This document shows, piece by piece, positions 6,715 to 53,246 of a stretch of 64,000 bases of DNA. The DNA comes from Patescibacteria group bacterium (lineage in GTDB: Bacteria > Patescibacteriota > Minisyncoccia > Phycocordibacterales > JAACPR01). The stretch lies in NCBI GenBank assembly GCA_022711495.1, contig JAKLEX010000001.1, forward strand, positions 291,379-355,378, given 5' to 3'. Made by a program: the position numbers and the translations under genes. The notes beneath the pieces are model-generated. The model ran no database searches and was not told where the DNA came from. It saw only the letters and a program-made list of their open reading frames with translations. Every line of letters begins with the position of its first letter. Positions within the stretch are counted from its first letter, which is position 1.

Positions 6715-7815
6715 ATGTTCTTGGCGGCTATTTTGTTGATAGTAATTCTGGGAGTTCTGATTTTTGTTCACGAACTTGGCCATTTTTTAATCGCCAAAAA
6801 ATCTGGAATAAGAGTTGACGAATTTGCCCTCGGCTTTCCACCACGGTTGTTTAGTTTCAAAAAAGGGGAGACGAAATATTCCATAAATTTAATTCCGTTT
6901 GGCGGATTCGTGAAGATTTTTGGCGAGGATGTTGACGATGAAAGTTCCGATCCAAATCGGACCGACAGTTTCCTGAACAAATCTAAATTGACGCAAGCGG
7001 TGGTTTTATCCGCCGGAGTTTTATTTAATGTCTTTTTTGGCTATGTTTTGATTTCTATAAGTTTGATGGCCGGATTTCCTTCTATTATTACGGACAGAAA
7101 CTCGGATTGGGTTTCAGACGCTCGCGTGGTCGTGAGCGGCGTTTTACCGAACTCACCGGCGAAAATGGCTGGAATTGAGCCGGGCGATTCAATTTTGCGG
7201 GTTGTAAAAGGAGGGAAGACCTTGGGTCCAGAAGAGATCACCGTTTCTAATATTCAAAATATTATCGCCGGCGGCGAAGCCGGAGAAGTTTCTCTAACTT
7301 TGATCCGAAACGGAGAAGAGAGAAATGTCGTGGTGGATACGACTCCCGGGATAATCGCCGATAAACAGGCCATCGGCATCTCAATGGAAAAAATCGGCAC
7401 CGTGAAGTTTCCTTTTTTCCGTGCGCTCGGCGAAGGGATAATTTTGACTGGTCAGACAATTAAAGAAGTCGCCGTTGGTTTGGCAAGAATCATCGGAATG
7501 GCGGTTACCGGACGTGCTTCTCTGAATGATATCGCCGGTCCGGTAGGAATCGTCGGACTGGTGAATTCGGCTCGAAATTTTGGTTTCTTTTATTTGTTAA
7601 CTTTCACGGCGTTCATTTCTTTGAACTTGGCGGTTTTGAATATTTTGCCTTTGCCGGCGTTGGACGGCGGGCGGCTTTTGATGATTTTGATTGAAGCGAT
7701 CTCCCGCCGAAAAATAAAACCAGCCGTGGCCAATTGGCTAAACGGAATCGGCTTTGCTTTGCTGATGTTATTTATGATCGCCGTGACGGTCAATGATATT
7801 TTAAGGTTGGTTTAG
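6715..7815 (+). CDS. rseP: RIP site-2 zinc metalloprotease RseP
   Basis: HELGHF (HExxH) sits in the first transmembrane helix. A PDZ domain is present. The C-terminal LDGG motif is present. Confidence 0.85.
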   Translation: MFLAAILLIVILGVLIFVHELGHFLIAKKSGIRVDEFALGFPPRLFSFKKGETKYSINLIPFGGFVKIFGEDVDDESSDPNRTDSFLNKSKLTQAVVLSAGVLFNVFFGYVLISISLMAGFPSIITDRNSDWVSDARVVVSGVLPNSPAKMAGIEPGDSILRVVKGGKTLGPEEITVSNIQNIIAGGEAGEVSLTLIRNGEERNVVVDTTPGIIADKQAIGISMEKIGTVKFPFFRALGEGIILTGQTIKEVAVGLARIIGMAVTGRASLNDIAGPVGIVGLVNSARNFGFFYLLTFTAFISLNLAVLNILPLPALDGGRLLMILIEAISRRKIKPAVANWLNGIGFALLMLFMIAVTVNDILRLV

Positions 7816-7896
7816 GTTCGGGCTTTCATAATTGATTACGGCGCCCCCTCTCTTCTCGCTTCTCCTTTCACTCAGATTTTGCTATATTATTGAGCA

Positions 7897-9156
7897 ATGA
7901 GGCAATCAAAACTTTTTACTAAAACACGTCGTTCGGCGCCGAAAGACGAAATTTCCAAAAGTGCGCAATATTTAATCCGCGCCGGATTTATCCATAAACA
8001 AATGGCCGGCGTTTATACGTTGCTTCCGCTGGGATTGATGACCATGAAAAAAATTGAGCAGGTCATTCGCGAGGAGATGAACAAAATCGGCGGAGTTGAA
8101 TTAAGTCTGACCGCCCTTCAAGATCCGGAAGTTTGGAAGAAAACTGATCGCTGGGATGACGACAAAGTTGATAATTGGTTTAAGACAAAATTAAAAAACG
8201 GCACGCAACTTGGTCTCGGATTTACTCATGAAGAACCTTTGACGGAAATCATGACCAATCACATTCACTCTTATAAAGATTTACCGATCTATGCCTATCA
8301 GTTCCAAACCAAATTTCGCAATGAATTAAGGGCTAAATCGGGTATTTTGCGTGGTCGGGAATTCTTGATGAAAGACCTGTATTCTTTCTCTAAAAACCAA
8401 AAAGAGCACGACGAATTTTACAAAAAAGCCCAAGAAGCTTATAAAAATATTTTTCATCGTCTAGGAATCGGCGATCGAACTTATATGACTTTTGCTTCGG
8501 GCGGAGTCTTCAGCCAATTTTCGCATGAGTTTCAAACCTTAACTGAAACTGGCGAGGACACGATCTTTGTTGACGAGAAGAAGAAAATCGCCGTCAATAA
8601 AGAAGTTTGCACCGATGAAATCTTAGCCGAACTTGGTTTAAGCCGAAAAAACTTAAAAGAAGTTCGCGCCATTGAAGTCGGAAATATTTTTAATCTGGGC
8701 ACTCGATTTTCCGAACCACTGAGTCTGGTTTTTGACGATGAAAAAGGCGAGAAGCATCCGGTCATAATGGGCAGTTACGGAATCGGTTTGGGCAGAGTTA
8801 TGGGCACTCTTGCCGAAGTTTTATCTGATGAAAAAGGGCTAGTCTGGCCGGCAGAAGCTTCGCCCTTCGCTGTTCATCTAATAAACGTCTCGCCGGAAGA
8901 AGAGGCGGCCGTCAAAACCGCTGAAGACTTTTATGAGAATCTGGTCGCCAACGGTCTTTCTGTTTTATACGACGACCGCAAAATGGCCGTTGGAGAGAAA
9001 TTAGCCGACGCCGATTTAATTGGCATCAAGACTCAAATTATTGTCGGCGCCAAATCTATCCAATCCGGCGAGTTTGAAATTCGGGACAGGCAAACCGGTT
9101 CAATCAAAAAAATGAGCGAAGCCGATATTTTAAAAGGAAAGTTTGCAAAAGCCTAA
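7897..9156 (+). CDS. proS: prolyl-tRNA synthetase (short bacterial form without INS editing domain)
   Basis: 419 aa. Class II motifs YQFQTKFRNELRAKSGILRGREFLMKDLYSF and GSYGIGLGR are present. Confidence 0.85.
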   Translation: MRQSKLFTKTRRSAPKDEISKSAQYLIRAGFIHKQMAGVYTLLPLGLMTMKKIEQVIREEMNKIGGVELSLTALQDPEVWKKTDRWDDDKVDNWFKTKLKNGTQLGLGFTHEEPLTEIMTNHIHSYKDLPIYAYQFQTKFRNELRAKSGILRGREFLMKDLYSFSKNQKEHDEFYKKAQEAYKNIFHRLGIGDRTYMTFASGGVFSQFSHEFQTLTETGEDTIFVDEKKKIAVNKEVCTDEILAELGLSRKNLKEVRAIEVGNIFNLGTRFSEPLSLVFDDEKGEKHPVIMGSYGIGLGRVMGTLAEVLSDEKGLVWPAEASPFAVHLINVSPEEEAAVKTAEDFYENLVANGLSVLYDDRKMAVGEKLADADLIGIKTQIIVGAKSIQSGEFEIRDRQTGSIKKMSEADILKGKFAKA

Positions 9157-10261: not shown

Positions 10262-11015
10262 AAAACAAGAACTTAAGAGAAAAATTCATCAAGCAATTTT
10301 AGTTGTTGTTATTCTTGCCGCCCTGTTCTTTTTTGGTTCTTTTGTCAGAGGGCTTGTTCAATTTATCAATGCGCCAATTAGCGCCGCCAAAGAAATTATT
10401 ACGCGGCCGTTTGGAACTTTTTTTGGTTATTTTGCTTCAAAAAGCGAATTGGTAGAACGAAATCTAGCTTTGGATGGAGAGAACAAAAAATTAAAAATAG
10501 AGCTTCTGACCGTTGAATCTCTGCGTCGGGAAAACGATTCTTTAAAAGACCTTTTAAATTATAACCAGGAAAACCCGAATAATCTTTTGGCTAAAGTTTT
10601 AAATCGTCCGCCGGTTTCTCCCTACGATACCTTTGTCATAGACCTAGGTAGTGATAAAGTCGCTGTCGCTCAAGAAGTTTTCTATCAAAATATTCCCATT
10701 GGTCGGATCGCTGAAGTTTATAGTGGCAGTGCCATAGTTAGAATTTATTCTTCTTCCGGTGAGAAGATTTTTGTTGATATCGACGAAGATCTGACTAATA
10801 TTGAAGCCCTGGGAATCGGTGGCGGGACTTTCCGGGCCAAAATACCAAAAGACCTGATAATTGATGTTGGCGCCATGGTTACTCTGCCGGGCGGTGTCTT
10901 GCTTGGCCAGGTAGAAGGAATTGAGCCGGAACCTTCCGATACTTTCCAAAATCTATATTTCAGGTATCCATTTAAATTAAGCCAAATTGATTGGGTTACC
11001 GTTCAAGCGGATTAA
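10233..11015 (+). CDS. mreC: rod shape-determining protein MreC
   Basis: 260 aa. An N-terminal transmembrane segment is followed by a coiled coil (NLALDGENKKLKIELLTVESLRRENDSLKDL) and a beta-rich C-terminal domain. It sits between mreB and mreD. Confidence 0.75.
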   Translation: MRTNFPQRNKKQELKRKIHQAILVVVILAALFFFGSFVRGLVQFINAPISAAKEIITRPFGTFFGYFASKSELVERNLALDGENKKLKIELLTVESLRRENDSLKDLLNYNQENPNNLLAKVLNRPPVSPYDTFVIDLGSDKVAVAQEVFYQNIPIGRIAEVYSGSAIVRIYSSSGEKIFVDIDEDLTNIEALGIGGGTFRAKIPKDLIIDVGAMVTLPGGVLLGQVEGIEPEPSDTFQNLYFRYPFKLSQIDWVTVQAD

Positions 11016-11031
11016 ATTATAGAAAATCAAA

Positions 11032-11298
11032 ATGAAGACAAATATCTGGTGGAGAGTTTCGTATAGTTTGTTCATAATCCTGTGCGCTTTCGTCGCTCCG
11101 TGGTGGATCAGCGTCGTTTTTTCAATATTGGGGTTGTTATACTTTGAGAAATTATACGAAGTTATGGTCGTCGGAATTGTTCTGGATTCTCTGTATGGTT
11201 TCAATGTTGAGATCTTTAGTTTTGGCTTTATTTTCACTCTATTTTTAATTATTGTCTTTTATCTGATTTCTAATCTTAGAAAAAATTTGCTGATCTAA
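11032..11298 (+). CDS. mreD: MreD-like small integral membrane protein
   Basis: 88 aa and very hydrophobic. It sits between mreC and PBP2. Confidence 0.55.
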   Translation: MKTNIWWRVSYSLFIILCAFVAPWWISVVFSILGLLYFEKLYEVMVVGIVLDSLYGFNVEIFSFGFIFTLFLIIVFYLISNLRKNLLI

Positions 11299-11299
11299 T

Positions 11300-12994
11300 A
11301 TGTATTTTTTCAACAGAAAGAGGGGGCGAGTTAGACAAAGAAGGGAAATTGATCCCGATGAGATTTTAATTGACGCGGAAAATCTGCCGGGTTTTGATAC
11401 GGATCAATTTGAAGGTCGGATTGAAAAACCGATCGCCAAAAAAACATTTTTTATTGTCGGTTTAATTTTCCTGATTATCGGGGCGTCTTTTCTTTCTCGA
11501 ATTTGGTTTTTACAAATCACCGAAGGTCAAGAAAATGTTAAAATTAGCGAACAGAATCGTTTGCGACAGTCGGTGATTTTCGCCGATCGTGGAATCATTT
11601 ACGATATCAATAATAATCCGCTTGTTTGGAACGAAGCGGCAGCCAATCCCGGAGATGTCAGTCAGAGGCGATACATTGATCTGCCCGGTTTCGCCGATCT
11701 CTTGGGTTACGTAACTTATCCTAAAAAAGATAACGCCGGATTCTATTTTGCCGAGGAGACCATGGGGGTTGATGGTTTAGAGCTTATTTACAACGATTTT
11801 CTATCCGGAGAAAATGGTTCGGAGATTATTGAGACCAACGCCTTGGGTGAAACGGTTGATACCAGTACTATTCGTAAACCTGTTCACGGCGGAGATTTAC
11901 ACTTAACCATTGATCGCGACATCCAGAGTAAACTTCAAGAAGGCATGGCGCGAATTATTTCCGAAAGAGATTTCCGCGGTGGCGGCGGAGTAATCATGGA
12001 TGTTTGGACTGGCGACATCTTGGCACTGGTCAGTCTGCCCGAATATGACTCAAATGTCTTATCAGAAGGGCAAGATGAGGCCAAGATTCAATCTTATATA
12101 GATAATCCGCAGAATCCTTTTCTTGATAGAGTCACCAATGGTCAATACACTCCGGGCTCTATTGTTAAACCTTTTATCGCCCTGGCGGCCCTATCGGAAA
12201 ATATTATTAATCCACTCAAAGAGATTTATAGCGCTGGTAAAATGTACGTGCCCAATCCGTATGATCCCGAACATCCCTCGGTTTTTTCCGATTGGAAAGC
12301 TCATGGTGCGGTTGATATGAGAAAAGCCTTAGCGGTTTCCTCAAACATTTATTTTTATCAAGTTGGTGGTGGGTTTGAAGATCAACCCGGACTTGGCATT
12401 TCAAACATAAATAAATATATGCGAATGTTTGGTTTTGGCGAATCCATTTCTACCAATGAGTTTGATACGCCTTCTGGTGTAGTTCCAAATCCGGAATGGA
12501 AGAGAGAGACTTTTGATGATGACTGGCGCCTTGGCGACACATATTTTACCTCAATCGGTCAGTACGGCTTTTTGGTGAATCCACTACAAATGGTTGTGGC
12601 CGTCGCGACTATTGCTAATGAGGGGACGGTTCTTAACCCGCGGTTGGTTTCCGATCAAACCGGTTCGCCGGAGATTAAAAGACAGGTTTCTATTTCACGC
12701 GAAGATTTTCAAGTCGTGAAAGAGGGCATGCGACAGGGCGTGACTTCGGCTACAGTTCAAGGATTAAACTATCCCGATCTGGAAATCGCCGGTAAAACTG
12801 GAACGGCTGAATTGGGCGAATCCAAAGAAAGAGTCAATTCCTGGGTCACAGGATTCTTTCCATATAGAAATCCGCGATACGCATTCGTCTTGGTTTTGGA
12901 ACAGGGGCTGGTTAAAAACCAGGTCGGCGCCGTTTATGCCGCGAAAATTCTTTTTGACTGGTTGAAAGTTGAAAAACCAGAATATACTTATTAA
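11300..12994 (+). CDS. mrdA: penicillin-binding protein 2 (class B transpeptidase)
   Basis: SIVKP (SxxK), SSN and KTGTAE motifs are present. An N-terminal transmembrane segment and a dimerisation domain are present. The gene follows mreBCD. Confidence 0.85.
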   Translation: MYFFNRKRGRVRQRREIDPDEILIDAENLPGFDTDQFEGRIEKPIAKKTFFIVGLIFLIIGASFLSRIWFLQITEGQENVKISEQNRLRQSVIFADRGIIYDINNNPLVWNEAAANPGDVSQRRYIDLPGFADLLGYVTYPKKDNAGFYFAEETMGVDGLELIYNDFLSGENGSEIIETNALGETVDTSTIRKPVHGGDLHLTIDRDIQSKLQEGMARIISERDFRGGGGVIMDVWTGDILALVSLPEYDSNVLSEGQDEAKIQSYIDNPQNPFLDRVTNGQYTPGSIVKPFIALAALSENIINPLKEIYSAGKMYVPNPYDPEHPSVFSDWKAHGAVDMRKALAVSSNIYFYQVGGGFEDQPGLGISNINKYMRMFGFGESISTNEFDTPSGVVPNPEWKRETFDDDWRLGDTYFTSIGQYGFLVNPLQMVVAVATIANEGTVLNPRLVSDQTGSPEIKRQVSISREDFQVVKEGMRQGVTSATVQGLNYPDLEIAGKTGTAELGESKERVNSWVTGFFPYRNPRYAFVLVLEQGLVKNQVGAVYAAKILFDWLKVEKPEYTY

Positions 12995-17126: not shown

Positions 17127-18417
17127 AAAAGTCATATTTATAATACTAACGATTGAAGCAAAAATTGTTCTTTTGCGTTATCGTCCGAAGATTATCGTTG
17201 TTAGTGGCACGGTTGGTAAGACGACGACCAAGGATGCCATTTTCTCGGCCCTCTCAAAGACTTTTCATGTTAGAAAGAATTCTAAAAGTTTGAACAGTGA
17301 AATTGGTGTGCCCTTAACTATTTTGGGTCTGGAAACCGGTTGGAATAATCCGTGGCGCTGGTTGTCTAATCTAGTCATTGGATTTTTGGAGATAATCTAT
17401 TATCCAAAATATCCCGAGTGGTTAGTAATTGAAGTCGGAATTGATCATCCGGGAGACATGAAAAAAACTGCTTCATGGCTTAAGCCGAATGTTGCGGTTT
17501 TGACGGCCTTTGGCCAAGTTCCGGTTCACGTAGAATTTTTTGAAGGACCAGACGATGTCACGAAAGAAGAAGCTGATATCATCAATTATTTACGCCGAGA
17601 CGGAATTATTGTCTTGAACGCCGACGACGAAAAAGCTCTGCGGTTGAAAGGGAAGACGAATCACAAAGTTTATACTTTCGGTAAGGGAGAGAATGCCGAC
17701 CTGGTTGCTTCTCATTATTCGGTGGTTTATGAATCTGTAAATGGCCGACCAGTTCCGCGCGGCGTTTCTTTCAAGGTCAGTTATTTGGGCAGTATTCTGC
17801 CGATTTCAGTAAGAAATGTTGTTGGCGATCAATTTGTTTATCCGATTCTGGCGGCGCTTTCCGTTGGCGTAGCGGTTAATTCATCGTTGGTTTCTTCTTT
17901 GGAGGGTTTGCGAAATTTTAAAGCGCCAAAAGGTCGCATGAATTTACTGGCTGGTGAAAACGAGACGATTATTATTGACGACAGTTACAATTCTTCACCG
18001 ATGGCGGCGACCAGCGCCATTCGCAATTTAGCCGAAATAGAAACGGCGGGGTCAAGAATCGCGGTGCTTGGCGATATGGCAGAAATCGGGCGATTCTCCG
18101 CCAGTGAACATCGCAAAATCGGAGCTTTAATTAAACAAAAGAAAATTGATATTTTGATAACTGTCGGCCGCGCTTCGGAATTGATGAATGAGCAGGCGAT
18201 TGAAGAGGGCATGGCTCAATCGCGCAATTATCATTTCAGTCATTCGGAAGAAGCTATCGCGACAGTTAAGAGATATTTAAAGCCGGGCAATATTATTTTG
18301 GTTAAGGGATCGCAATCAATGCGGATGGAAAGAATCACTAAGGCGATTATTTTGGAAAAGGATTCGGCTTCGGATTTGATTGTTAGGCAGGAAAAAGAAT
18401 GGCTAGCGAGAAGTTAA
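17110..18417 (+). CDS. murF: UDP-N-acetylmuramoyl-tripeptide--D-alanyl-D-alanine ligase MurF
   Basis: The Mur ligase P-loop GTVGKTTTKD and the IIDDSYNSSP motif (the DDSYN signature of MurF) are present. Confidence 0.75.
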   Translation: MKALIRKVIFIILTIEAKIVLLRYRPKIIVVSGTVGKTTTKDAIFSALSKTFHVRKNSKSLNSEIGVPLTILGLETGWNNPWRWLSNLVIGFLEIIYYPKYPEWLVIEVGIDHPGDMKKTASWLKPNVAVLTAFGQVPVHVEFFEGPDDVTKEEADIINYLRRDGIIVLNADDEKALRLKGKTNHKVYTFGKGENADLVASHYSVVYESVNGRPVPRGVSFKVSYLGSILPISVRNVVGDQFVYPILAALSVGVAVNSSLVSSLEGLRNFKAPKGRMNLLAGENETIIIDDSYNSSPMAATSAIRNLAEIETAGSRIAVLGDMAEIGRFSASEHRKIGALIKQKKIDILITVGRASELMNEQAIEEGMAQSRNYHFSHSEEAIATVKRYLKPGNIILVKGSQSMRMERITKAIILEKDSASDLIVRQEKEWLARS

Positions 18418-18582
18418 GAAGTAACAAAACTCCAAAGCATTTTTCAAGACACGCGTCGGCTCCTCCAGCGAGGAGCCGCGCTACTCTCGGTCGGTTTTCG
18501 GCACTCTTCGGTGCCGACCAAGCAAAACCGACCTGCGAGAGTCTCTCAAAATGCTTTGGAGTTTTGTTAGGGAGCTTAACTT
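18411..18582. ncRNA. highly structured palindromic element (candidate ncRNA / MITE-like repeat): 8+22 bp perfect closing stem enclosing three internal hairpins
   Basis: AAGTTAAG..GTAACAAAACTCCAAAGCATTTT at 18411-18443 pairs perfectly with AAAATGCTTTGGAGTTTTGTTA..CTTAACTT at 18550-18582. The internal hairpins are CGGCTCCTC-cagcg-GAGGAGCCG, GTCGGTTTT[CGGCAC-tcttcg-GTGCCG]...AAAACCGAC and GAGA-gtc-TCTC. The overlapping 68 aa ORF has no RBS and is judged non-coding. Confidence 0.5.
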
Positions 18583-18613: not shown

Positions 18614-18687
18614 GGCCCTATCGTCTAACGGTTAGGACATCGCCTTCTCAAGGCGGAAATCAGAGTTCGATTCTCTGTAGGGTCACC
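18614..18687 (+). tRNA. tRNA-Glu (anticodon CTC)
   Basis: GGCCCTA acceptor (G2-U71 wobble), TCGCC-TTCTCAA-GGCGG anticodon arm with anticodon CTC, a 4 nt variable loop, CAGAG-TTCGATT-CTCTG T-arm, discriminator A and an encoded CC. Confidence 0.85.
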
Positions 18688-18706
18688 TAAACATTCTCAC
18701 TCACAG

Positions 18707-18734
18707 TTGACAGAATAAGTTCAAGTGATACAAT
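18707..18734 (+). promoter_or_regulatory. sigma70-type promoter TTGACA-16-TACAAT for the SemiSWEET-like gene
   Basis: TTGACA lies at 18707-18712 and TACAAT at 18729-18734. A GGGGG Shine-Dalgarno site sits 8 nt upstream of the ATG at 18778. Confidence 0.55.
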
Positions 18735-18777
18735 ATCTCAAGAAACTAAGGATCTTTAGAGATGAAAGGGGGATAGA

Positions 18778-19056
18778 ATGTCCTCGATACTCGGTGCTCT
18801 GGCGATGCTTGTCTCGCTGGCAGTTGTTTTCTTTGGCTTGACTTCTCAAGCCTGGAAAAATTACAAGAGAAAAACTTGCGAAGGTTTGTCCATAACACTG
18901 ATACTGGTTACGCTACTGGCCTATTCGGTTTGGCTGGCGTATGGAATATCCAAACCGGACTGGTTTTTGATTGCCTCGCAAACCCCGGGCGTAATAATGG
19001 GGCTGATAATCTTGAGCCAGTATTTGGTCTATGATTCCAAAAAGAAGAAGTCGTGA
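18778..19056 (+). CDS. SemiSWEET-like PQ-loop family small transporter (3 TM)
   Basis: 92 aa. QAWKNYKRKTCEGLS and LAYGISKPDWFLIAS...G.I match the PQ-loop/SemiSWEET signature (PQ..K.K....G.S and YG....D..LIAS). PQ is replaced by SQ here. Confidence 0.6.
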   Translation: MSSILGALAMLVSLAVVFFGLTSQAWKNYKRKTCEGLSITLILVTLLAYSVWLAYGISKPDWFLIASQTPGVIMGLIILSQYLVYDSKKKKS

Positions 19057-19089
19057 TCAGCGATAAACCCAATAAAAAAGGAGACTGCC

Positions 19090-19272
19090 ATGTCCAGAAA
19101 AAGATGCGGTATGAAAGGACGAATCCGGCTCTGCTTGCGGAACGGGATGATATTTTGCCACCGGCTGAAATGCAAGGTGCCGATCGTTGTGGACGACAAC
19201 GAAGGTAACTATTGCGTTGAGCCGAGCTGTCCCTGCAACCCACATCTGCGCCCGAAAGAAGCGGCGCAGTAG
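19090..19272 (+). CDS. small cysteine-rich protein (7 Cys in 60 aa), function unknown
   Basis: An AGGAG Shine-Dalgarno site lies 6 nt upstream of the ATG. The terminator follows immediately. Cysteines sit at positions 6, 15, 23, 28, 42, 47 and 49. The protein is basic. Confidence 0.45.
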   Translation: MSRKRCGMKGRIRLCLRNGMIFCHRLKCKVPIVVDDNEGNYCVEPSCPCNPHLRPKEAAQ

Positions 19273-19294
19273 GCAACTCTATTCCAAGAAACAA

Positions 19295-19327
19295 AACACT
19301 CGTGGCTATGCCCGGGTGTTTTTTATT
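19295..19327 (+). terminator. rho-independent terminator
   Basis: AACACTCG...CGGGTGTT forms a hairpin followed by TTTTTTATTT. Confidence 0.6.
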
Positions 19328-19355
19328 TGACACGTTGAATGTTTATTTGTACTAT
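19327..19355 (+). promoter_or_regulatory. sigma70-type promoter TTGACA-17-TACTAT
   Basis: TTGACA lies at 19327-19332 and TACTAT at 19350-19355. It is followed by an untranslated leader of about 75 nt before the GAGGAG RBS. Confidence 0.5.
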
Positions 19356-19431
19356 TTTACCCCAGAACAGTGGAACTTGAAGCACAACGTTTCAGGCCAT
19401 TGAGGAAAGTACGTTATAACAAGAGGAGAAG

Positions 19432-20367
19432 GTGGACATGAACAAGGGGACAAAGTTGGCGATAGCGCTATTTGTCGGGGCCGTCTTTGGCGAAGCTGTC
19501 GGTTATTATCTTCTGGTCAGTACACTCGGCCTTTCCATGATCTGGATTTTGCCGACGACTCTGATCGGGATGCTCGCTGGCAGTTGCGCCGTCTTGGGCG
19601 TCGAACCGTTGGTCCTGATTATCTGCACGATCGGTCTCTGGCTGACAAGTCTGGAGCCCGGCCAAAAAATCCGTGCGTGGAAACAGGGCCTGATTAGCAG
19701 TTGGCGTGCCTTCCGCGACGATCATCCGTGGTGGAGAACTTTACGGACGATCTGCCTCATTCTGTATTGGGCATCGTGGATCTGGGCGTATTTCAAAGCC
19801 GCCATGTTTATGTGGCATGGAAGTCACAGCCTATTCTTGGCTCTTACTGTGCCGGTTGGCGTTGGTGCGTTTTTGTTCGTCTCATCTATATTGCTCGTTG
19901 AGCGATATGGTCTGGAAGAAGTCCTTTTTCAGAAAATGTTGGTCCGGCGCTCGCCAAAGAGGTTATTTCGGAGAGACAAGGTGGTGGATTTCGTGATAGA
20001 GGAGATAACATTCCTATTGGCGGCCAACCCGTTTTCGGTGGTGACCATTGATATCTTCCTCGGCGGGTTTTTTGTGGTGAAAACCACTGCTGTCTGGCTC
20101 ATCAACCTTTTCTGGAATATTCTGGAGACGGTCAATTCCAGTAACCTTGTAGTGATTGCGACCGGCGGCGCGATCGGCCTGATCGTCTCGCAAGTATGTG
20201 GATATCCTCCGTTGATCTCTTGTGTCGTCGGCGGAGTCGGCGGACTTCTCGTGAAGCTCGCAATCAACGCGATCCTGTTCGTGTTTGTCTTCATCGTTCT
20301 GATGATCATGAGTTGGTTACTTGGTTCTGATATTATCTGGGAAGCAACATCGTGCGATTCGGACTAA
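19432..20367 (+). CDS. polytopic integral membrane protein (about 8 TM), unknown function
   Basis: 311 aa and strongly hydrophobic. A strong RBS AAGAGGAGAAGG is present. The start is either the GTG at 19432 or the ATG at 19438. The segment is GC-richer than its surroundings. Confidence 0.5.
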   Translation: MDMNKGTKLAIALFVGAVFGEAVGYYLLVSTLGLSMIWILPTTLIGMLAGSCAVLGVEPLVLIICTIGLWLTSLEPGQKIRAWKQGLISSWRAFRDDHPWWRTLRTICLILYWASWIWAYFKAAMFMWHGSHSLFLALTVPVGVGAFLFVSSILLVERYGLEEVLFQKMLVRRSPKRLFRRDKVVDFVIEEITFLLAANPFSVVTIDIFLGGFFVVKTTAVWLINLFWNILETVNSSNLVVIATGGAIGLIVSQVCGYPPLISCVVGGVGGLLVKLAINAILFVFVFIVLMIMSWLLGSDIIWEATSCDSD

Positions 20368-20409
20368 TGGTCGATTAGTTTGCTGGCACCTAATCGGTTC
20401 GTTAATTCC

Positions 20410-20448
20410 AAAGCTCGGAAGATGGCAATCTTTCGAGCTTTTATTTTT
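20410..20448 (+). terminator. rho-independent terminator
   Basis: AAAGCTCGGAAGAT-ggca-ATCTTTCGAGCTTT forms a hairpin followed by TATTTTT. Confidence 0.65.
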
Positions 20449-20474
20449 GACATACTTTTTAAAACTTGTAGTAT
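20447..20474 (+). promoter_or_regulatory. sigma70-type promoter TTGACA-16-TAGTAT
   Basis: TTGACA lies at 20447-20452 and TAGTAT at 20469-20474. An AAGGAG RBS sits 7 nt upstream of the ATG at 20520. Confidence 0.5.
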
Positions 20475-20519
20475 CTATCTTGAATAGTTCATAAGAATCC
20501 AAATATAAGGAGAAAACAG

Positions 20520-21167
20520 ATGAACCTGTTGATAGCTGATATTGCCGCTTGGATGAAGGAGAAGGGGCTGATCGGTCTGCATTTTGATACCACGGTTGAA
20601 GACGGAGTTTATGTTTATCATGTTTACGTTCATGGTCGAGTTTCGGCCGTCAGGGGCGACGACTATCAGTCGAACATTGAAGCTGTTGTGTTTTGGCATA
20701 AACCCGGCCGGCCGTTAAACGCCGATCAGATTGCCTCTTCTTTGTCTCCCGGAACTCGTAAGAAGATTCTTGACGAGTTGGAAGAATTGCAAGCCGCGAA
20801 TCGTCTTGATGCGTGCGATCAAATCGCATACACGGAGGCCTTTGAGTTCAAACTGCAGGAGCGGGTCATGGACGATTATCGTGAAAAATGTATGGTCGTC
20901 GGTCAGCGCGACGAAGAAGCTCTTCACATGTTTTTTAGCCCGGCCCGAGTGGTCGCTGGGCTGACTGACAGGGAGGTGCGGCTCTGCATTCTAATGTCTT
21001 CTTTACGCGATCAGCAGAAAAGGCTTTTTCCTTTGATGAGGCCACCGATGTTGTCCGAGAAGTTACTAAGATTTCCGGATATTTCTTTGCCCAGAGGGGA
21101 GGCACTGAAGGAGGCGATCTACGATATCCTCCTGGATATTGCCGAAAGCCAAATTCTTCCTTTTTGA
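20520..21167 (+). CDS. hypothetical cytoplasmic protein (215 aa)
   Basis: A good RBS is present with its own promoter and terminator. No recognisable domain was found. It contains an R-x5-H stretch (RDEEALH), which is weak HEPN-like evidence only. Confidence 0.45.
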   Translation: MNLLIADIAAWMKEKGLIGLHFDTTVEDGVYVYHVYVHGRVSAVRGDDYQSNIEAVVFWHKPGRPLNADQIASSLSPGTRKKILDELEELQAANRLDACDQIAYTEAFEFKLQERVMDDYREKCMVVGQRDEEALHMFFSPARVVAGLTDREVRLCILMSSLRDQQKRLFPLMRPPMLSEKLLRFPDISLPRGEALKEAIYDILLDIAESQILPF

Positions 21168-21179
21168 TCTCTTCGCTAC

Positions 21180-21214
21180 GACCAGAGCTAGTCTCTGGTC
21201 TTTTTATTTTTTTG
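21180..21214 (+). terminator. rho-independent terminator
   Basis: GACCAGAG-ctagt-CTCTGGTC is a perfect 8 bp hairpin followed by TTTTTATTTTTTT. Confidence 0.7.
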
Positions 21215-21229
21215 AGAGAATAATCACGT

Positions 21230-21656
21230 TGTTTTTTAAATAAAATCATTGCAAATAAAAATCACCCCTGAAAGATGAGGTGATGAAAATGGTCGGTGCC
21301 TTCTAGGCGGCACCGGTAGCCCCTAACTCTGCACTGAACTGCCATTAATGGCGGAGACCGGCGGAAATTGGTTTTTCCGCACCGCCGTACCTTTCTCGGT
21401 ACGTGTCCACGTTGGATTTTTACTGCCTTCTCCATTATGCAACCGGTTGGACGCCGGGACCCCAGTCCACGCGTGCGTTTCCAGGATCAACCAGAAACGA
21501 TCACTCGCTTAAACCGGAAAGTCGGTGCTTTTCAAGAAGAGTTCACAAACCCAACTGAACTTACGGCCTCCATATTTTCTAGACAAGAGAATAGCAAAAC
21601 TTGGTTTTGTGTCAAGAGGTTGCGGATCTCGGTCAATTTGCCGATTTGGGCAAATA
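21230..21656. other. GC-rich, hairpin-dense non-coding region (candidate structured RNA, unidentified)
   Basis: There is no credible ORF; 21368..21730 overlaps the thrS 3' end and lacks signals. Multiple stable hairpins are present: ATCACC...GGTGAT, CGGTGCC...GGCACCG, the palindrome GCCATTAATGGC, GCGGAAA...TTTCCGC, GTACC...GGTAC and TTGCC...GGCAA. Confidence 0.35.
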
Positions 21657-23387
21657 TTATTTTAGATCTTCAACCAATTTTTCCAAATCTAGCATTCCGA
21701 TATTACCTTTGTCGCGACTTTCCAGTGTGAACTTATCTTCCGCGATTTCTTTATCTCCAATTACGACGAAATAGGGAACTTTTTCAATCTTGGCCTTTCT
21801 AACTTTTTTACCAAAACCGTCGTTGGAATCGTCAATCTCAGCGCGGATTTTTCTTTTCTTAAACTCCGCCAAAAGCTCAAGAGCTTTTTCATTGTGAGTT
21901 TCTCCAACTGGCAGAATCTTCACTTGAACTGGAGCGATCCAGAAAGGGAAATTGCCAGCGAAATGTTCAATCAAAATCGCCAGAAATCTTTCATAAGAAC
22001 CCAGAATTGCTCGGTGAATCATGACCGGCGGTTTCTTTTGACCGTCTTTGTCCGTATATTCCAAACCGAATCTCTTTGGCATATTAAAGTCCAGCTGAAT
22101 CGTCGCCAACTGCCATTCGCGACCGAGAGAATCCTTAAACATATAGTCTATTTTTGGTCCATAAAGCGCCGCTTCGCCCTCCATGGTTTTGGCGCCTAAA
22201 TTAAGTTCTTCAGAGATTTCTTTCAAAATTTGCTCAGACTTTTTCCAAGTCTCTGGATCGCCGATGTATTTTTCCGGATGTTTTTTGTCGCTAGTAGAGA
22301 GCGAAACCCAATGAGAGCCAAACAAGCCGATGTCCGTATAAAATTCTTCAATAATTTTAGCGATACTTTTAACTTCATTTTTAACCTGTTCCGGCGTGCA
22401 GAAAATATGGCCGTCATCGCAGGTAATTGATCGAACGCGCGTTAGACCGCTGATTTCACCAGGCATTTCATCGCGATATTGCATGGTTGATTCCATCAGA
22501 CGAACTGGCAGATCGCGATAACTTCTTGGAATTGAAGCATAAATTTGGGTGTGATGTGGACAATTAACTGGCTTCAAAACGAATTCATCGTAATGGCTAA
22601 CAACTTTTATCAATTCATCGGAAAATTTAGCCGCATGACCGGAAATTTCGTAAAGTTTTTTCTTGGCTAAGTGAGGGATAGTAACTTCTTGCATGTCATA
22701 TCTGGCACTAATTTCAAAAAGGCGATTTTTCAAAGCGTTGCGAATAGCCGTGCCTTTAGGCGTGAACAATGGCAAGCCGGCGCCAACTAATTCGGAAAAA
22801 GTGTACAGATTCATTTCTTTGCTGATCTTGCGATGATCTCGTTCGGCCGCTTCAGCCATTTTCTTTTTGTGTTCTTCTAAGGCCGCGGCATTTTCAAAAG
22901 CCAGACCGTAAATACGAGTCAACATCTTATTTTTTTCATCGCCTCGCCAATAGGCGCCAGCCATTTTGTTGATTTCAAAAGCTTCGGCGTCAATCTCTTT
23001 GGTGTTCTCTATATGAGGGCCGGAACACAAGTCAACAAAATCTCCGGTTGAGTAAATAGAAATTTTTTGCCCGTCATTAACAATCTCGTCAATTAACTCT
23101 AGTTTATATGGATTGTCTTTAAAAATTTCGCGCGCCTCTTTTTCTGAAACCTCTTTTCTCTCAAAATCAAGCTTTTTATTGATAAGTTTTTTAATGGTTT
23201 TTTGAAAAGTTTTTAAGTCTTTTTCAGTCGGAGTTTTACCGTCACTGAAATCAAAGTCATAATAAAAACCGTTATCAATAACTGGCCCGATGGTGACCTT
23301 AACCTTGGGGTCAAAATCTAATACTGCCATAGCTAATAAATGAGCCAGCGAATGACGAATCTTAAATATCTTGTCTTCTTTATTCAT
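21657..23387 (-). CDS. thrS: threonyl-tRNA synthetase (short form lacking N-terminal TGS domain)
   Basis: 576 aa. It begins with the second additional domain (HSLAHLL). The class II catalytic core and a C-terminal anticodon-binding domain are present. Confidence 0.85.
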   Translation of the reverse strand: MNKEDKIFKIRHSLAHLLAMAVLDFDPKVKVTIGPVIDNGFYYDFDFSDGKTPTEKDLKTFQKTIKKLINKKLDFERKEVSEKEAREIFKDNPYKLELIDEIVNDGQKISIYSTGDFVDLCSGPHIENTKEIDAEAFEINKMAGAYWRGDEKNKMLTRIYGLAFENAAALEEHKKKMAEAAERDHRKISKEMNLYTFSELVGAGLPLFTPKGTAIRNALKNRLFEISARYDMQEVTIPHLAKKKLYEISGHAAKFSDELIKVVSHYDEFVLKPVNCPHHTQIYASIPRSYRDLPVRLMESTMQYRDEMPGEISGLTRVRSITCDDGHIFCTPEQVKNEVKSIAKIIEEFYTDIGLFGSHWVSLSTSDKKHPEKYIGDPETWKKSEQILKEISEELNLGAKTMEGEAALYGPKIDYMFKDSLGREWQLATIQLDFNMPKRFGLEYTDKDGQKKPPVMIHRAILGSYERFLAILIEHFAGNFPFWIAPVQVKILPVGETHNEKALELLAEFKKRKIRAEIDDSNDGFGKKVRKAKIEKVPYFVVIGDKEIAEDKFTLESRDKGNIGMLDLEKLVEDLK

Positions 23388-27386: not shown

Positions 27387-27437
27387 ACCCACAGCTACTT
27401 GCCTTTGTTTTTTGCTTCTGCTAAACTCTTGGTCACT

Positions 27438-27656
27438 ATGGTTGTAAGAATGCGTAGCAATAGTTCTCATACGGGTAATCGCCGATCTCATATTAAATTG
27501 AGCAAGCCGGCGTTAACTCGCGACCAAAATGGCGCTCTATCGTTGCGCCATCGTGTTTCTCCGATTTCTGGAATGTACAAAGGAAAACAGGTTCTTGATT
27601 TAACTAAGAAGCTTACTAAGAAAGCCAAGAAGATAGAAGAGACAGAAAAGAAATAG
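27438..27656 (+). CDS. rpmF: 50S ribosomal protein bL32 (cysteine-free form)
   Basis: RRSHIKLSKPAL...LRHRVSPISGMYKGKQVL aligns with the bL32 consensus RRSHxALxxPAL..C..CG...LxHRVCPxCGYYKGxxV. All four zinc-ligand positions are substituted. Start taken at the MVVRMRS codon. Confidence 0.6.
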   Translation: MVVRMRSNSSHTGNRRSHIKLSKPALTRDQNGALSLRHRVSPISGMYKGKQVLDLTKKLTKKAKKIEETEKK

Positions 27657-27657
27657 G

Positions 27658-27717
27658 AAATTGGCAAAACACTTTTGAGAGACTCTCGCGTGTCTCGAAA
27701 AAGTGTTTTGCCAATTT
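27658..27717. terminator. giant near-perfect hairpin (about 27 bp stem) between rpmF and nusB; likely terminator/palindromic repeat
   Basis: AAATTGGCAAAACACTTTTGAGAGAC-tctcgcgt-GTCTCGAAAAAGTGTTTTGCCAATTT. A T-rich tract follows. The centre shares the core GCGAGAGTCTCTCAAAA with the element at 18535. Confidence 0.5.
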
Positions 27718-27768
27718 TCCCTTTACTTTTCTGTATAAAAAGTTAAAATTGTCCTGTACCTTAAAAGC

Positions 27769-28683
27769 ATGGCGAATCGGCACCTTTCACGATCAATAGT
27801 GTTGCAGTCTCTCTTCGAATGGGATTTTCGGGGAGATGCCAAATTTGATGTTGATGAAACTATTTTGCGCAATGCTACGGAATTTGCTCCGGGAATCAGC
27901 GACGCGCCCTTTATGAAGAAGTTGCTTGAAACAGTTCTGGCCAAAAAATCCGAGCTGGATAAAATTATTACCAAAGCCGCGCCCGATTGGCCCCTAGATA
28001 AAATCTCCATTGTTGATAGAAATATTTTGCGTATTGGTCTGGCCGAACTGCTTTTTGCTGACCGAGAAGAAGTCCCGTCTAAAGTCGCCATAAACGAAGC
28101 TATTGAATTGGCTAAAACTTTCGGCGGCGAATCTTCCAGTAAGTTTGTTAACGGCGTTTTAGGCGCAGTTTATAAAGAGCTGGGAGAGCCAGGTAAAGAC
28201 GAATCAAAATCCAAAAAGCGTCGCGATATACCTTTTGAACAGATGCCTGTTGAGAAAAAGGCCGGCGCGGTTATTTATTCTGTTCATGACGGAGGAATCT
28301 ATATTGCTTTGGTGCATGATGTTTTCGGCCACTGGACTTTATCAAAAGGTGGAATTGAGTCTGGTGAAACCGACGAGGTCGGGGCCGTTCGCGCCATTAA
28401 GCAAGAACTTGGTCTGGACATAGAAATCGTTGACAGAATCGGGGAGAACGAATACGTTGCCAATCATCCGGAAAAAGGACAGCACCGTAAGCAAGTTGTT
28501 TACTTTTTAGCCAAGTCCAAATTTGAAGAACTTAAATTGAGTCAGTCTGGCGGTCTTGATAACGCGCAGTGGTTTAAGCTGGCCGACATCCTTGACCTTA
28601 ATTTTTATGATGATATTCTGCCTCTAGTTACTAAGGCGTTGAAGAAATTAGCGGAAATAAATGTCCGAGTAACGACTACTTAA
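27769..28683 (+). CDS. nusB: NusB-NUDIX fusion protein (N-terminal NusB antitermination fold, C-terminal NUDIX hydrolase-like domain with degenerate Nudix box)
   Basis: The N-terminal 130 aa are NusB-like (SRSIVLQSLFEWDF...RNILRIGLAELLF). A lysine-rich linker follows. The C-terminus has GGIESGETDEVGAVRAIKQELGL, matching GX5EX7R.UX.EXGU with REUxEE replaced by RAIKQE. Confidence 0.6.
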   Translation: MANRHLSRSIVLQSLFEWDFRGDAKFDVDETILRNATEFAPGISDAPFMKKLLETVLAKKSELDKIITKAAPDWPLDKISIVDRNILRIGLAELLFADREEVPSKVAINEAIELAKTFGGESSSKFVNGVLGAVYKELGEPGKDESKSKKRRDIPFEQMPVEKKAGAVIYSVHDGGIYIALVHDVFGHWTLSKGGIESGETDEVGAVRAIKQELGLDIEIVDRIGENEYVANHPEKGQHRKQVVYFLAKSKFEELKLSQSGGLDNAQWFKLADILDLNFYDDILPLVTKALKKLAEINVRVTTT

Positions 28684-34656: not shown

Positions 34657-35298
34657 ATGAATTTCCATATAATCTCACTTTTTCCAAATTCCATGAGCTC
34701 TTATATTAAGGAGTCTATTATCGGTCGCGCCATAAAGGATAAAAAAATTAGAGTTAAATTTTATAACCCAAGAGATTTTACCAGGGACAAATGGCGCCGG
34801 ATTGATCAAAAGCCGTATGGCGGTGGACCGGGCATGGTTATTCAAGCCGAGCCGGTTATTCGCGCAATCTCCAAGGCCATTGCTCGAAAAAATAAATACA
34901 AAATTGTTTTTCTGTCTCCTGGCGGTAAGCAGTTTGATACTAAAACCGCTCGACAAATCGCCCAATCTATAAAAGATTTGGTAATCATCGCCGGCCGCTA
35001 TGAAGGGATCGATGAAAGGGTTAATAAAGTTTTTAAGACCGAGAAAATTTCCGTTGGTCCGTATGTTTTGACTGGCGGGGAATTGCCGGCCCTGATTTTG
35101 GTTGATTCAATTTCTCGCCAGATTGAGGGCGTTTTGGGCAACGATTTGTCATTAGAAGAACGGCGGATTTCTTCAAACAAAGTTTATACGCGTCCGGAGA
35201 TCTTCAAAATAAAAGATAAAAATTACCGTGTGCCAAAAGTTCTTCTAAGCGGTGACCATAAGAAAATCAACATGTGGAAAAACGCCGGTAACAAATAA
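34657..35298 (+). CDS. trmD: tRNA (guanine37-N1)-methyltransferase TrmD
   Basis: SPOUT knot motifs YGGGPGMV and IAGRYEGIDERV are present. Confidence 0.9.
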   Translation: MNFHIISLFPNSMSSYIKESIIGRAIKDKKIRVKFYNPRDFTRDKWRRIDQKPYGGGPGMVIQAEPVIRAISKAIARKNKYKIVFLSPGGKQFDTKTARQIAQSIKDLVIIAGRYEGIDERVNKVFKTEKISVGPYVLTGGELPALILVDSISRQIEGVLGNDLSLEERRISSNKVYTRPEIFKIKDKNYRVPKVLLSGDHKKINMWKNAGNK

Positions 35299-35371
35299 AG
35301 ACGCATTTTGCTCGTCGTGGTACAATATCCACATAGGTTTTTATAATTTAGTTCACAATATAATTATCCTC

Positions 35372-36640
35372 ATGTTTTTTTCTAGATCATTAAGACGAAA
35401 CACCTCAAAAGGTTTCACTCTCCTGGAAATGCTCTTGGTCATCGCCATCATCGCCATCTTAGCTGCTATCGTTATCGTGGCCATCAACCCAGCGCGGCAA
35501 CTAGCCCAAGCTCGAAATGCTCAAAGAGCTAGTGATCTCAATGCTATCCATAAAGCTGTCCAACAGTACTACATAGATAACCTGGAATACCCAGACGGTT
35601 TAGATAGTAGTCTGCAAGAAATCTGCAATACTGGCGGAGGAGAAGATTGTATTGATATTGAAGACGCTTTAGTACCAACTTATCTTTCTGCTCTACCAGA
35701 AAATCCAAATGGTGGTAATTACGAAATCGCTCTACAGACTGGCAACAAACTAGCTTTAGTTGCTCCTGGTTCAAAAGAACAAGGACTTGGCGGCATTGTC
35801 ATTGGAACTTCAACTTCGTTAGTTGAAGAAGAAGGTGGTGGAGGGGGAGAAGAATGTGATGTTACTGCTGCCGGATCCTATGACTCCGCTACTGATGGCG
35901 ATTACACAGTTTTAACTTTTGATGGGGCCGGCACGTTCACAGTTAACTCTGGTACCTGTGATGCTGATATTCTTGTTGTTGGCGGTGGAGGAGGAGGAGG
36001 GCAGAAACATTCCGGAGGTGGTGGAGGCGGCGGCGTTATAGAAGAAAGCGTATCTGGTTTATCTGGTGAAATAGGAATCTCTGTTGGTTCTGGTGGCGCA
36101 GGTGGGCCAGCTGGTGATCCTTATAATGCTGGAGAAAACGGCGGAGATAGCTCTTTTGGTGATGATTATATTGCAATTGGTGGCGGTGGAGGAGGGGGTT
36201 ATAGTACAGCAAATGAAGCCGGTGACGGTGGTTCTGGGGGAGGCGCCGGGCAGAATAATGATGATCCGCCAGGACTTGGTGAAGCTGGACAAGGTAATAA
36301 TGGAGGTGACGAGTCTAGCGGCCGAGGCGGAGGCGGTGGTGGGGCCGGCGCGGTTGGAGAGGACTCTGATGGCACTAACGGCGGAACCGGAGGTGATGGC
36401 ATTTCTTCTGATATAACAGGTGTCGCCACCTATTATGGTGGTGGCGGAGGTGGAGTTGGTCCATCCCAAGCCGCTGGCGGACAGGGAGGCGGTGGTTCTG
36501 GTGCAAATTACAGCGATGAAGGATCGTTTCCGGCGGAAGATGGAACGGATGGACTTGGTGGTGGCGGAGGTGGAGGTCAAGATGCCGCAGGCGGAGATGG
36601 CGGTGATGGTGTTGTTATAGTCCGATATATAGCCAGCTAG
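35372..36640 (+). CDS. type IV pilin-like protein with very large glycine/aspartate-rich low-complexity C-terminal domain
   Basis: A prepilin class III signal MFFSRSLRRNTSKG|FTLLEMLLVIAIIAILAAIVIVAINP is present. A pilin head domain follows (QQYYIDNLEYPDG). About 250 aa are made of runs such as GGGGGGG, GSGGAGG and GGDGGDG. Start chosen at the ATG at 35372 because the ORF's upstream part overlaps trmD. Confidence 0.65.
   Translation: MFFSRSLRRNTSKGFTLLEMLLVIAIIAILAAIVIVAINPARQLAQARNAQRASDLNAIHKAVQQYYIDNLEYPDGLDSSLQEICNTGGGEDCIDIEDALVPTYLSALPENPNGGNYEIALQTGNKLALVAPGSKEQGLGGIVIGTSTSLVEEEGGGGGEECDVTAAGSYDSATDGDYTVLTFDGAGTFTVNSGTCDADILVVGGGGGGGQKHSGGGGGGGVIEESVSGLSGEIGISVGSGGAGGPAGDPYNAGENGGDSSFGDDYIAIGGGGGGGYSTANEAGDGGSGGGAGQNNDDPPGLGEAGQGNNGGDESSGRGGGGGGAGAVGEDSDGTNGGTGGDGISSDITGVATYYGGGGGGVGPSQAAGGQGGGGSGANYSDEGSFPAEDGTDGLGGGGGGGQDAAGGDGGDGVVIVRYIAS
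35980..36600 (+). repeat. degenerate GGN-codon tandem repeats (low-complexity DNA encoding the Gly-rich tail)
   Basis: Reiterated ggtgg(a/t)gg(a/c)gg units occur throughout. Confidence 0.6.
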
Positions 36641-36885
36641 TTGATTTTAGTTAAAATTCACCGCCATTTTCTGTGGAAAACTCGTTGACGCGGGTTTACT
36701 TTTAGTTTATCCTATCTTTAACGCTAAAGGGGATTGAGTTCGGGCAGAAATTGCGGTTTAAATATTAAAAATAATAAAAGCTAGCGGATGCGGCTTTTGG
36801 AAAATTATAAAAGTTAATTAATCATAAGAGGCGAAACTCTGAAAGGGGAGAGTTCCGCCCAATTTTTGCGTCTGCATAATTAAAT

Positions 36886-53168: not shown

Positions 53169-53170
53169 TT

Positions 53171-53246
53171 TGGTGGACCGGACAGGACTTGAACCCGCTA
53201 CCTCCTCAGTGCAAATGAGGCGCTCTACCAGCTGAGCTACCGGCCC
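53171..53246 (-). tRNA. tRNA-Ala (anticodon TGC)
   Basis: The reverse complement is GGGCCGGTAGCTCAGCTGGTAGAGCGCCTCATTTGCACTGAGG...GGTTCAAGTCC...CCGGTCCACCA. The G3:U70 alanine identity pair is present. The anticodon is TGC. CCA is encoded. Confidence 0.85.

Follow-up and report, generated by a model that had tools for sequence, protein, structure and literature searches.

Several large structured RNAs of bacteria, namely the OLE, GOLLD, ROOL and raiA motif RNAs, are classes defined by many homologues with covariation. A different kind of RNA gene is represented by the small RNAs of 3′ untranslated regions (3′ UTRs) in enterobacteria, of the DapZ and MicL type, which are 80–300 nt long, have accessible seeds and act by base pairing with Hfq. 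Paceibacterota and other bacteria of the Candidate Phyla Radiation (CPR) have tiny, tightly packed genomes, and to our knowledge very few CPR noncoding RNAs are known beyond the universal ones. In this study, we describe an interval directly downstream of thrS in a 64-kb stretch of contig JAKLEX010000001.1 (hereafter, the window), which belongs to an uncultured Candidatus Paceibacterota genome according to the source names of the matching records. We tentatively read this interval, from its sequence signals and predicted fold, as a single-copy, lineage-specific gene for a structured noncoding RNA of about 325 nt that is encoded on the minus strand and co-directional with thrS.

A promoter and a terminator on the same strand bracket a folded region of 324 nt (Table 1). 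The promoter at 21615-21588 has 10 of 12 matches and an extended −10 element (TGcTATTCT), and sites with at least 10 of 12 matches are rare, with just 19 across both strands of the window (128 kb). In addition, perfect TTGACA hexamers with 16–17-nt spacers are located directly upstream of three neighboring genes, at 18707, 19327 and 20447; these three promoters share the hexamers and no extended sequence. Because such sites are rare and a site of the same type precedes each of the three neighbors, we consider the fourth TTGACA-type site, which stands before the folded region, to be credible. At the other end, the terminator at 21284-21252 is the first convincing minus-strand terminator past thrS. 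The hairpin immediately after the thrS stop codon has no U-run in the sense of thrS, so that transcription from thrS probably continues as far as 21284-21252.

The region between these signals is predicted to fold with unusual stability. Read on the minus strand (21581 to 21258), the 324 nt have a minimum free energy of −125.7 kcal/mol, with z = −4.28 relative to 100 dinucleotide shuffles. Among 140 random background windows of the same length, the mean z was −0.30 (standard deviation 1.23) and the minimum was −3.42; in a second background set, one window was more extreme (z = −7.51), which is presumably the hairpin at 18.4 kb. The plus strand of the same core folds less stably (−103.7 kcal/mol, z = −2.5). 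The predicted structure contains 108 base pairs, 15 of which are G-U and would be A-C mismatches on the opposite strand. Most helices have a mean pair probability of at least 0.9, and the ensemble is well defined.

The predicted fold is closed and multi-branched. The end-closing helix begins 2 nt past the predicted transcription start, and its AUUUUC strand lies just before the terminator; this helix links the independently predicted 5′ end with the terminator base. Inside it, helix P1 closes a four-way junction, and the first arm of this junction, which spans 156 nt, consists of a 14-bp basal helix (21547-21560 with 21405-21419), a 6 × 6 internal loop, a 7-bp helix (21534-21540 with 21426-21432) and an inner three-way junction. 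The long-range helices of this arm contain G-U pairs and can thus form on the minus strand only. A cluster of DNA palindromes or terminators would not be expected to produce nested long-range helices of this kind, with G-U pairs. The strongest local hairpin, at 21476-21499, can likewise form on the minus strand only because of its two G-U pairs, and it was overlooked in the initial annotation, which was made from the sequence alone. The segment at 21482-21494 (minus strand), which covers the loop of this hairpin and its flanks, reads CUGGUUGAUCCUG, identical to the 5′-terminal hairpin sequence of eukaryotic small-subunit rRNA (primer AACCTGGTTGATCCTGCCAGT) and close to the archaeal and bacterial versions. 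None of the rRNA models matched the region, and this likeness is probably a coincidence. The 3′ strand of P1 is followed by GCCA, although a CCA after a helix is expected by chance with a frequency of 1/64. Downstream of P1 and GCCA are two hairpins and the terminator.

Table 1. Coordinates of the promoter, terminators, predicted RNA elements and adjacent genes; positions are those of the window.
Feature	Position	Strand	Description
Sigma-70-type promoter	21615-21588	minus	TTGACA 21615-21610; 16-nt spacer ending in TG 21596-21595; TATTCT 21593-21588
Body of predicted ~325-nt structured transcript	21258..21581	minus	From minimum free energy, shuffle z and pair probabilities
End-closing helix, 5′ strand GAAAAU	21574..21579	minus	Pairs with AUUUUC 21285-21290; mean probability 0.94
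P1, 5′ strand GGAGGCCG	21564..21571	minus	Pairs with CGGUCUCC 21353-21360; 8 bp, one G-U; probability 0.98; closes four-way junction
P1, 3′ strand CGGUCUCC, then GCCA (21352-21349)	21349..21360	minus	Acceptor-like end
Long arm, 156 nt	21405..21560	minus	Helix probabilities 0.95-0.99; first arm of four-way junction
Apical hairpin CGUUUCUGG-UUGAUC-CUGGAAACG	21476..21499	minus	9 bp, two G-U; probability 0.89
Hairpin CGUACC-GAGAAA-GGUACG	21386..21403	minus	Perfect 6 bp; second junction arm; probability 1.00
Hairpin GCGGAAA-AACCAA-UUUCCGC	21361..21380	minus	Perfect 7 bp; third junction arm, stacked on P1; probability 0.95
Hairpin CGGUGCC-GCCUAGAA-GGCACCG	21294..21315	minus	Perfect 7 bp; 3′ domain; probability 0.91
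Intrinsic terminator	21252..21284 (stem 21284-21261)	minus	8-bp stem AUCACCUC/GGGGUGAU, 8-nt loop, then UUUUUAUUU; pair probability 0.97
Hairpin right after thrS stop	21636..21655		7 bp; no U-run on thrS strand, T-run on plus strand only
57-aa basic open reading frame	21262..21435	minus	ATG start; downstream of promoter, ends inside terminator
thrS	21657-23387	minus	Stop codon 21657-21659
215-aa open reading frame	20520-21167	plus	Convergent with thrS
Terminator of 215-aa gene	21180-21200	plus
Spacer, 60 nt, 17% G+C	within 21180-21260	plus	Parts two convergent terminators

The interval itself stands apart from the other spacers of the window. The initial annotation described it as the longest noncoding interval, and our greedy map of open reading frames (ORFs) bears this out: positions 21168-21656 form an ORF-free gap of 489 nt that is the longest in the window. 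Its second claim, that the composition is unlike that of the AT-rich spacers elsewhere, holds for the spacers, since the G+C content is 0.475 at 21230-21656 and 0.515 in the core (21258-21581) compared with 0.421 in the window and 0.28–0.39 in tRNA-free intergenic gaps, and only 1.9% of 324-nt windows match the core in G+C richness. However, the adjacent ORFan genes also have a G+C content of 0.48–0.51, and the interval is therefore similar in composition to its immediate neighbors. Every stem that had been listed is present, and the three perfect hairpins of at least 7 bp exceed the window-wide mean of 0.34 per 427 nt, a count of three being reached by 0.6% of windows. The 120-aa ORF at 21368..21730 also exists, although it is not the sole ORF as had been stated, because five more of 46–57 aa occur; none has coding potential. 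A coding score based on codon usage, trained on the long ORFs of the window, was negative in all six frames of the interval, and the best frame (−0.19) was in the bottom 3% of windows. As controls, thrS and the 215-aa gene scored positive in their own frames. The 64-kb window contains no second copy of the interval.

Together, these observations include what is generally looked for in a stand-alone noncoding RNA gene: its own promoter and terminator on one strand, no coding capacity and stability beyond the background. From these signals we infer that the region is transcribed, which RNA ends are produced, how the RNA folds in vivo and that it may have a function. Transcription would start approximately 7 nt past the promoter, at about 21580 (A) or 21579 (G), which is 7–8 nt past the −10 hexamer, and would stop at the terminator. 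Because thrS appears to have no terminator of its own, its read-through transcripts probably end with this sequence as well. The product would be a closed, compact RNA with paired ends, in which P1 and GCCA would close a four-way junction formed by the 156-nt arm and two perfect hairpins, and two more hairpins are predicted between P1/GCCA and the terminator. With approximately two-thirds of its bases paired and no long stretch left single-stranded, the product appears more likely to be a stable protein-binding, scaffold or other structure-dependent RNA than a base-pairing regulator. Complementarity of the candidate to 55 translation-initiation regions was no better than that of shuffled controls.

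The same arrangement is 100% identical in 12 independent assemblies, JGI 3300025715 among them; it is therefore not an assembly artifact, yet these assemblies provide no variation to analyze. The nearest ThrS relatives are 82–83% identical, and none falls between 83% and 100%; four relatives in the 82–83% range are CAYOAT01, CAYWTD01, JGI Ga0643523 and JGI Ga0643524. The thrS loci of relatives were obtained from a scan of genome contigs with ThrS (four loci) and from contig look-ups (loci L005-L016). Nothing like the interval was detected by nhmmer, blastn or tblastx in 14 of these loci, with ThrS identities of 68–83%, and the sole nhmmer or blastn match over all loci was the identical source contig. 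The comparison with the thrS-downstream regions of relatives that the initial annotation had proposed thus covered 14 loci and yielded no similar sequence in any of them. The order rnhB-dnaE-thrS is retained in the relatives. Downstream and convergent with thrS, they carry a variable protein without a Pfam match, a sortase, usually tRNA-Tyr, and clpB, and synteny with the window ends exactly at the thrS stop codon in all of them. The relatives end thrS within 42–177 nt by strong bidirectional terminators (within 42–58 nt) or hairpins of approximately 100 nt. The zone after thrS is variable in L001-L004 and L009-L016, in which differing proteins of 110–491 aa without a Pfam match lie beside the sortase. 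In L012, an rve-family integrase is inserted at 7772-8647, downstream of thrS, and hairpin inserts of approximately 100 nt follow the thrS stop in L013 and L014 (5744-5911 in L013) and in L015 (5753-5929). In a more distant relative, L007, thrS at 10558-12296 is split between two adjacent ORF calls (308 and 255 aa), which points to a frameshift, an error in sequencing or a pseudogene.

Several observations weigh against a functional RNA gene, and they are best considered together with the view that the interval is non-functional, lineage-specific DNA. According to this view, rearrangement or acquisition in the variable zone downstream of thrS left the interval behind, the hairpins and the promoter- and terminator-like sites are partly fortuitous, and any transcription is read-through noise. 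The absence of the interval from the 14 loci of relatives, the variable zone after thrS with its integrase and hairpin inserts, and the exact end of synteny at the thrS stop all fit such an origin. Homologues were equally absent from all other sequence sets searched: blastn against phage and plasmid records was empty, five pattern scans of viral contigs were empty, and two metagenome pattern scans, which used 14–15 exact bases plus purine/pyrimidine positions tolerating transitions, were also empty, although the last is weak evidence because the collection missed even the source contig. Moreover, the interval lies in a lineage-specific, G+C-elevated ORFan segment, and its high G+C content may reflect origin rather than RNA function because the ORFan neighbors are equally G+C-elevated. 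The signals have weaknesses of their own. The −10 hexamer matches at only four of six positions; the strand asymmetry of the fold is moderate, with the z gap of 1.8 reached by 13% of background windows and the free energy gap of 22 kcal by 6.7%; and a regression of minimum free energy on composition, with windows that clip the element, gave z values of only about −1.5 to −2 (top 3–7%), a result that is superseded by the shuffle test at the exact coordinates. On the other hand, non-functional DNA does not account for a fold that is more stable than the background of the window and favors one strand, for a promoter and a terminator exactly at the ends of this fold, or for the lack of residual coding signal, pseudogene similarity, repeats, terminal inverted repeats and att sites. 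We regard it as somewhat unlikely, yet as a serious rival of the RNA gene. It is also conceivable that the sequence acts in cis as a structured thrS 3′ UTR that stabilizes the mRNA, shields it from 3′ exonucleases or forms a roadblock to the convergent gene, with the internal promoter unused. The post-thrS hairpin without a U-run and the distance to the first good terminator on the thrS strand are in agreement with this idea, as is the presence in relatives of terminators or long hairpins close behind thrS. However, a multi-branched UTR of 400 nt is not needed for termination and has no counterpart in the relatives; a strong promoter-like site of the type found at neighboring genes stands between the thrS stop and the fold; and the closing helix begins 2 nt past the start predicted from that promoter rather than at the thrS stop. 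A role as a 3′ UTR alone is thus distinctly unlikely in our opinion.

The candidate could also be a highly divergent member of a known family, such as RNase P RNA, transfer-messenger RNA (tmRNA), 6S RNA, a tRNA with a divergent group I intron or a free group I intron, several of which the initial annotation had considered. The size and G+C content would fit, and the acceptor-like helix followed by GCCA would suit a tRNA-like molecule. At gathering thresholds, however, Rfam 15 detected only the three tRNAs of the window and nothing in the interval, and at E ≤ 10 nothing credible was found in sequences of 701 nt and 331 nt, so that the clean match that would have reclassified the interval did not appear. 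ARAGORN reported no tRNA or tmRNA at the default or 90% thresholds, nor with introns of up to 400 nt; two tRNA calls at the 80% threshold were judged not credible. The initial annotation had seen by eye no T-loop with an acceptor pair and, for RNase P, only a partial likeness to a P4 strand, and the motif scans were negative: a T-arm is absent on both strands, in a scan that recovers all three control tRNAs, and the hairpin at 21361..21380 is not a canonical T-arm. For tmRNA, a GTTCRA T-loop is lacking and the pair 3:70 is A-U rather than G-U (a G-U pair occurs at 5:68). For RNase P RNA, neither RNaseP_bact_a nor RNaseP_bact_b matched at the gathering score or at E ≤ 10, and of the universally conserved P4 strands CR-I (GAGGAAAGUCCGGGC) has no match with up to three mismatches window-wide, and CR-V (ACAGAAnnCGGCUUA) has none within 21168-21660; the partial GGAAAGTCGG that had been compared with a P4 strand is on the plus strand, which folds worse, and is too near thrS for the remaining RNA to fit. 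For 6S RNA, there is no Rfam match, and the fold is a multi-branched four-way junction instead of a rod with a large central bubble. Introns that escape standard tools have been reported in Patescibacteria tRNAs (PMC13011429), and because of the acceptor-like helix and GCCA an interrupted tRNA was considered as well. When segments inside the 223-nt core (21571-21349) were deleted and the flanking 5′ and 3′ parts joined, none of the 2250 products was called as a tRNA. RF00028 was not among the matches at E ≤ 10, and an nhmmer profile built from six published Patescibacteria tRNA introns, run with all filters off, was blank in 21100-21800, whereas the same profile recovered the exons of tRNA-Asn at 126-200. 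A riboswitch, T-box or ribosomal-protein leader received no Rfam match, and past the terminator there is only the antisense of the convergent gene; a remnant of an L20/infC leader was rejected as infC, rpmI and rplT are absent from the window. A divergent known RNA is therefore largely refuted and, in our view, extremely improbable. We think equally little of a small-protein gene, either the 57-aa ORF or another short ORF. The 57-aa ORF has an ATG downstream of the promoter and ends in the terminator, but the coding score is negative in every frame, no Shine-Dalgarno sequence is visible by eye before its ATG, its sole match among 1.84 billion representative proteins is a motif-level coincidence with a eukaryotic IQ-repeat protein, and the Joint Genome Institute annotation of the same contig calls no gene here. 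A pseudogene was rejected, as tblastx of the interval against the loci of all relatives was blank and codon-usage scores were negative in six frames. The suggestion of a degraded mobile element found no positive support, although a non-functional remnant remains conceivable: terminal inverted repeats and target-site duplications, which would mark a miniature inverted-repeat transposable element (MITE) or insertion sequence remnant, are absent within and flanking 21150-21700, no repeat (att) of the tRNA-Glu 3′ end was found, the window has no second copy, and no mobile, phage or defence genes are nearby. The other proposal of the initial annotation, a novel noncoding RNA, is favored by the promoter, the terminator, a fold that is well defined and favors one strand, and the absence of coding signal; it remains a candidate because no homologue was found for a covariation test.

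To the right of the interval are thrS, dnaE, rnhB, rpmF, nusB, rnc and smc. To the left are the mraZ-rsmH-ftsL-ftsI-murF genes, tRNA-Glu (18614-18687) and four small transcription units. The segment from tRNA-Glu to the interval (18700-21200; G+C content of 0.48–0.51 compared with 0.42 in the window) encodes a SemiSWEET (92 aa), a 60-aa ORF and proteins of 311 and 215 aa. The SemiSWEET, 311-aa and 215-aa genes each have their own TTGACA promoter, and terminator-like hairpins occur in the spacers before the promoters of the 311-aa and 215-aa genes and at the 3′ end of the latter. A search of 5.8 billion protein clusters gave no homologue of the 311-aa protein. For the 215-aa protein there is a single distant homologue, which is encoded in the variable zone near thrS of locus L007, where the RNA is absent; the structure prediction for the 215-aa protein was unusable (pLDDT 49.7). 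None of the neighboring proteins, SemiSWEET and the three unknowns, matched a phage, defence or mobile-element protein. With regard to the tRNA genes of the window, tRNA-Asn (118-200) and tRNA-Ala (53163-53246) encode the 3′ CCA, that is, two of three, and the tRNA-Glu gene (18614-18690) ends with GGGTCACC followed by T and encodes CC only.

Three other stretches of the window were conspicuous. The most over-structured one, at 18410-18580, is located between murF (which ends at 18417) and tRNA-Glu, with the ORFan segment between it and the thrS-adjacent interval. Its 34-nt arms (18422-18455 and 18536-18569) are 85% complementary and are extended by flanking complementarity, and two G+C-rich hairpins lie inside. 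It folds at −96.6 kcal/mol (z = −10.2), gave no match in Rfam and resembles either an inverted-repeat element of the MITE type or a hairpin RNA of an unknown kind. The composition-regression scan ranked 27433-27920 second for excess structure (z of approximately −3.6); this stretch overlaps a small conserved gene between rnhB and nusB and its flanks, and relatives annotate this gene as ribosomal protein L32 (rpmF). A G+C peak (0.56) with a strong skew of G over C at 36001-36800 is due to the long glycine-rich tail of a protein (35252-36640) that has a type IV pilin-like N-terminus (GFTLLEMLLVIAIIAILAAIV) and is encoded just upstream of rpoB.

If a structured RNA gene is indeed present downstream of thrS, it would be unusual for so small a genome to invest in an intricately folded RNA of 325 nt with separate expression signals, and the RNA could point to lineage-specific biology. 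At present, its value is that of a candidate whose ends, strand and fold are precisely specified, known from one sequence of one uncultured species. A bolder proposal, which we consider improbable, is that the candidate founds a new class of large structured RNAs in Paceibacterota, marked by a four-way junction and an acceptor-like helix with GCCA. According to this proposal, processing by RNase P and 3′ trimming would give the RNA a tRNA-like end, and it would serve as a ribonucleoprotein scaffold or tRNA mimic, possibly with the neighboring ORFan proteins. The acceptor-like helix with GCCA is intriguing, but every other tRNA-like feature is missing.

With RNase P RNA the candidate shares a similar length, an above-average G+C content, paired ends resembling P1 and a multi-branched fold; it differs in having no P4 strands (CR-I and CR-V) and no Rfam match. 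The likeness to tRNA-like RNAs, such as tmRNA and the modules of bacterial Y-like RNAs, consists of the 8-bp terminal helix (G1-C, G2-C, A3-U and so on) stacked on a hairpin, the discriminator-like G and CCA after this helix, and a stand-alone gene with its own promoter, which is predicted in the present case. In addition, a long helix exits the junction beside the terminal helix, as P2 of tmRNA does. Unlike these RNAs, the candidate lacks a T-loop on both strands, a D-loop analogue and a G3-U70 pair, an extra hairpin is present between the long arm and the T-like hairpin, and the CCA is internal, with approximately 95 nt and the terminator after it; both Rfam and ARAGORN reject the candidate. 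The OLE, GOLLD, ROOL and raiA RNAs also have intricate folds of hundreds of nucleotides, are encoded by independent genes without a known function, and occur near genes for uncharacterised and partly membrane proteins. The candidate is shorter, is a single sequence and matches none of their Rfam models. Compared with sRNAs of the DapZ and MicL type, it is almost fully paired, its promoter is outside the gene, past the stop codon, and its complementarity to targets is not above chance. Those sRNAs, however, are similarly encoded on the same strand directly downstream of a coding gene, share the only terminator of this gene and have a promoter of their own. Because of such a shared terminator and separate promoter, both read-through and independent transcripts would be expected from the thrS locus.

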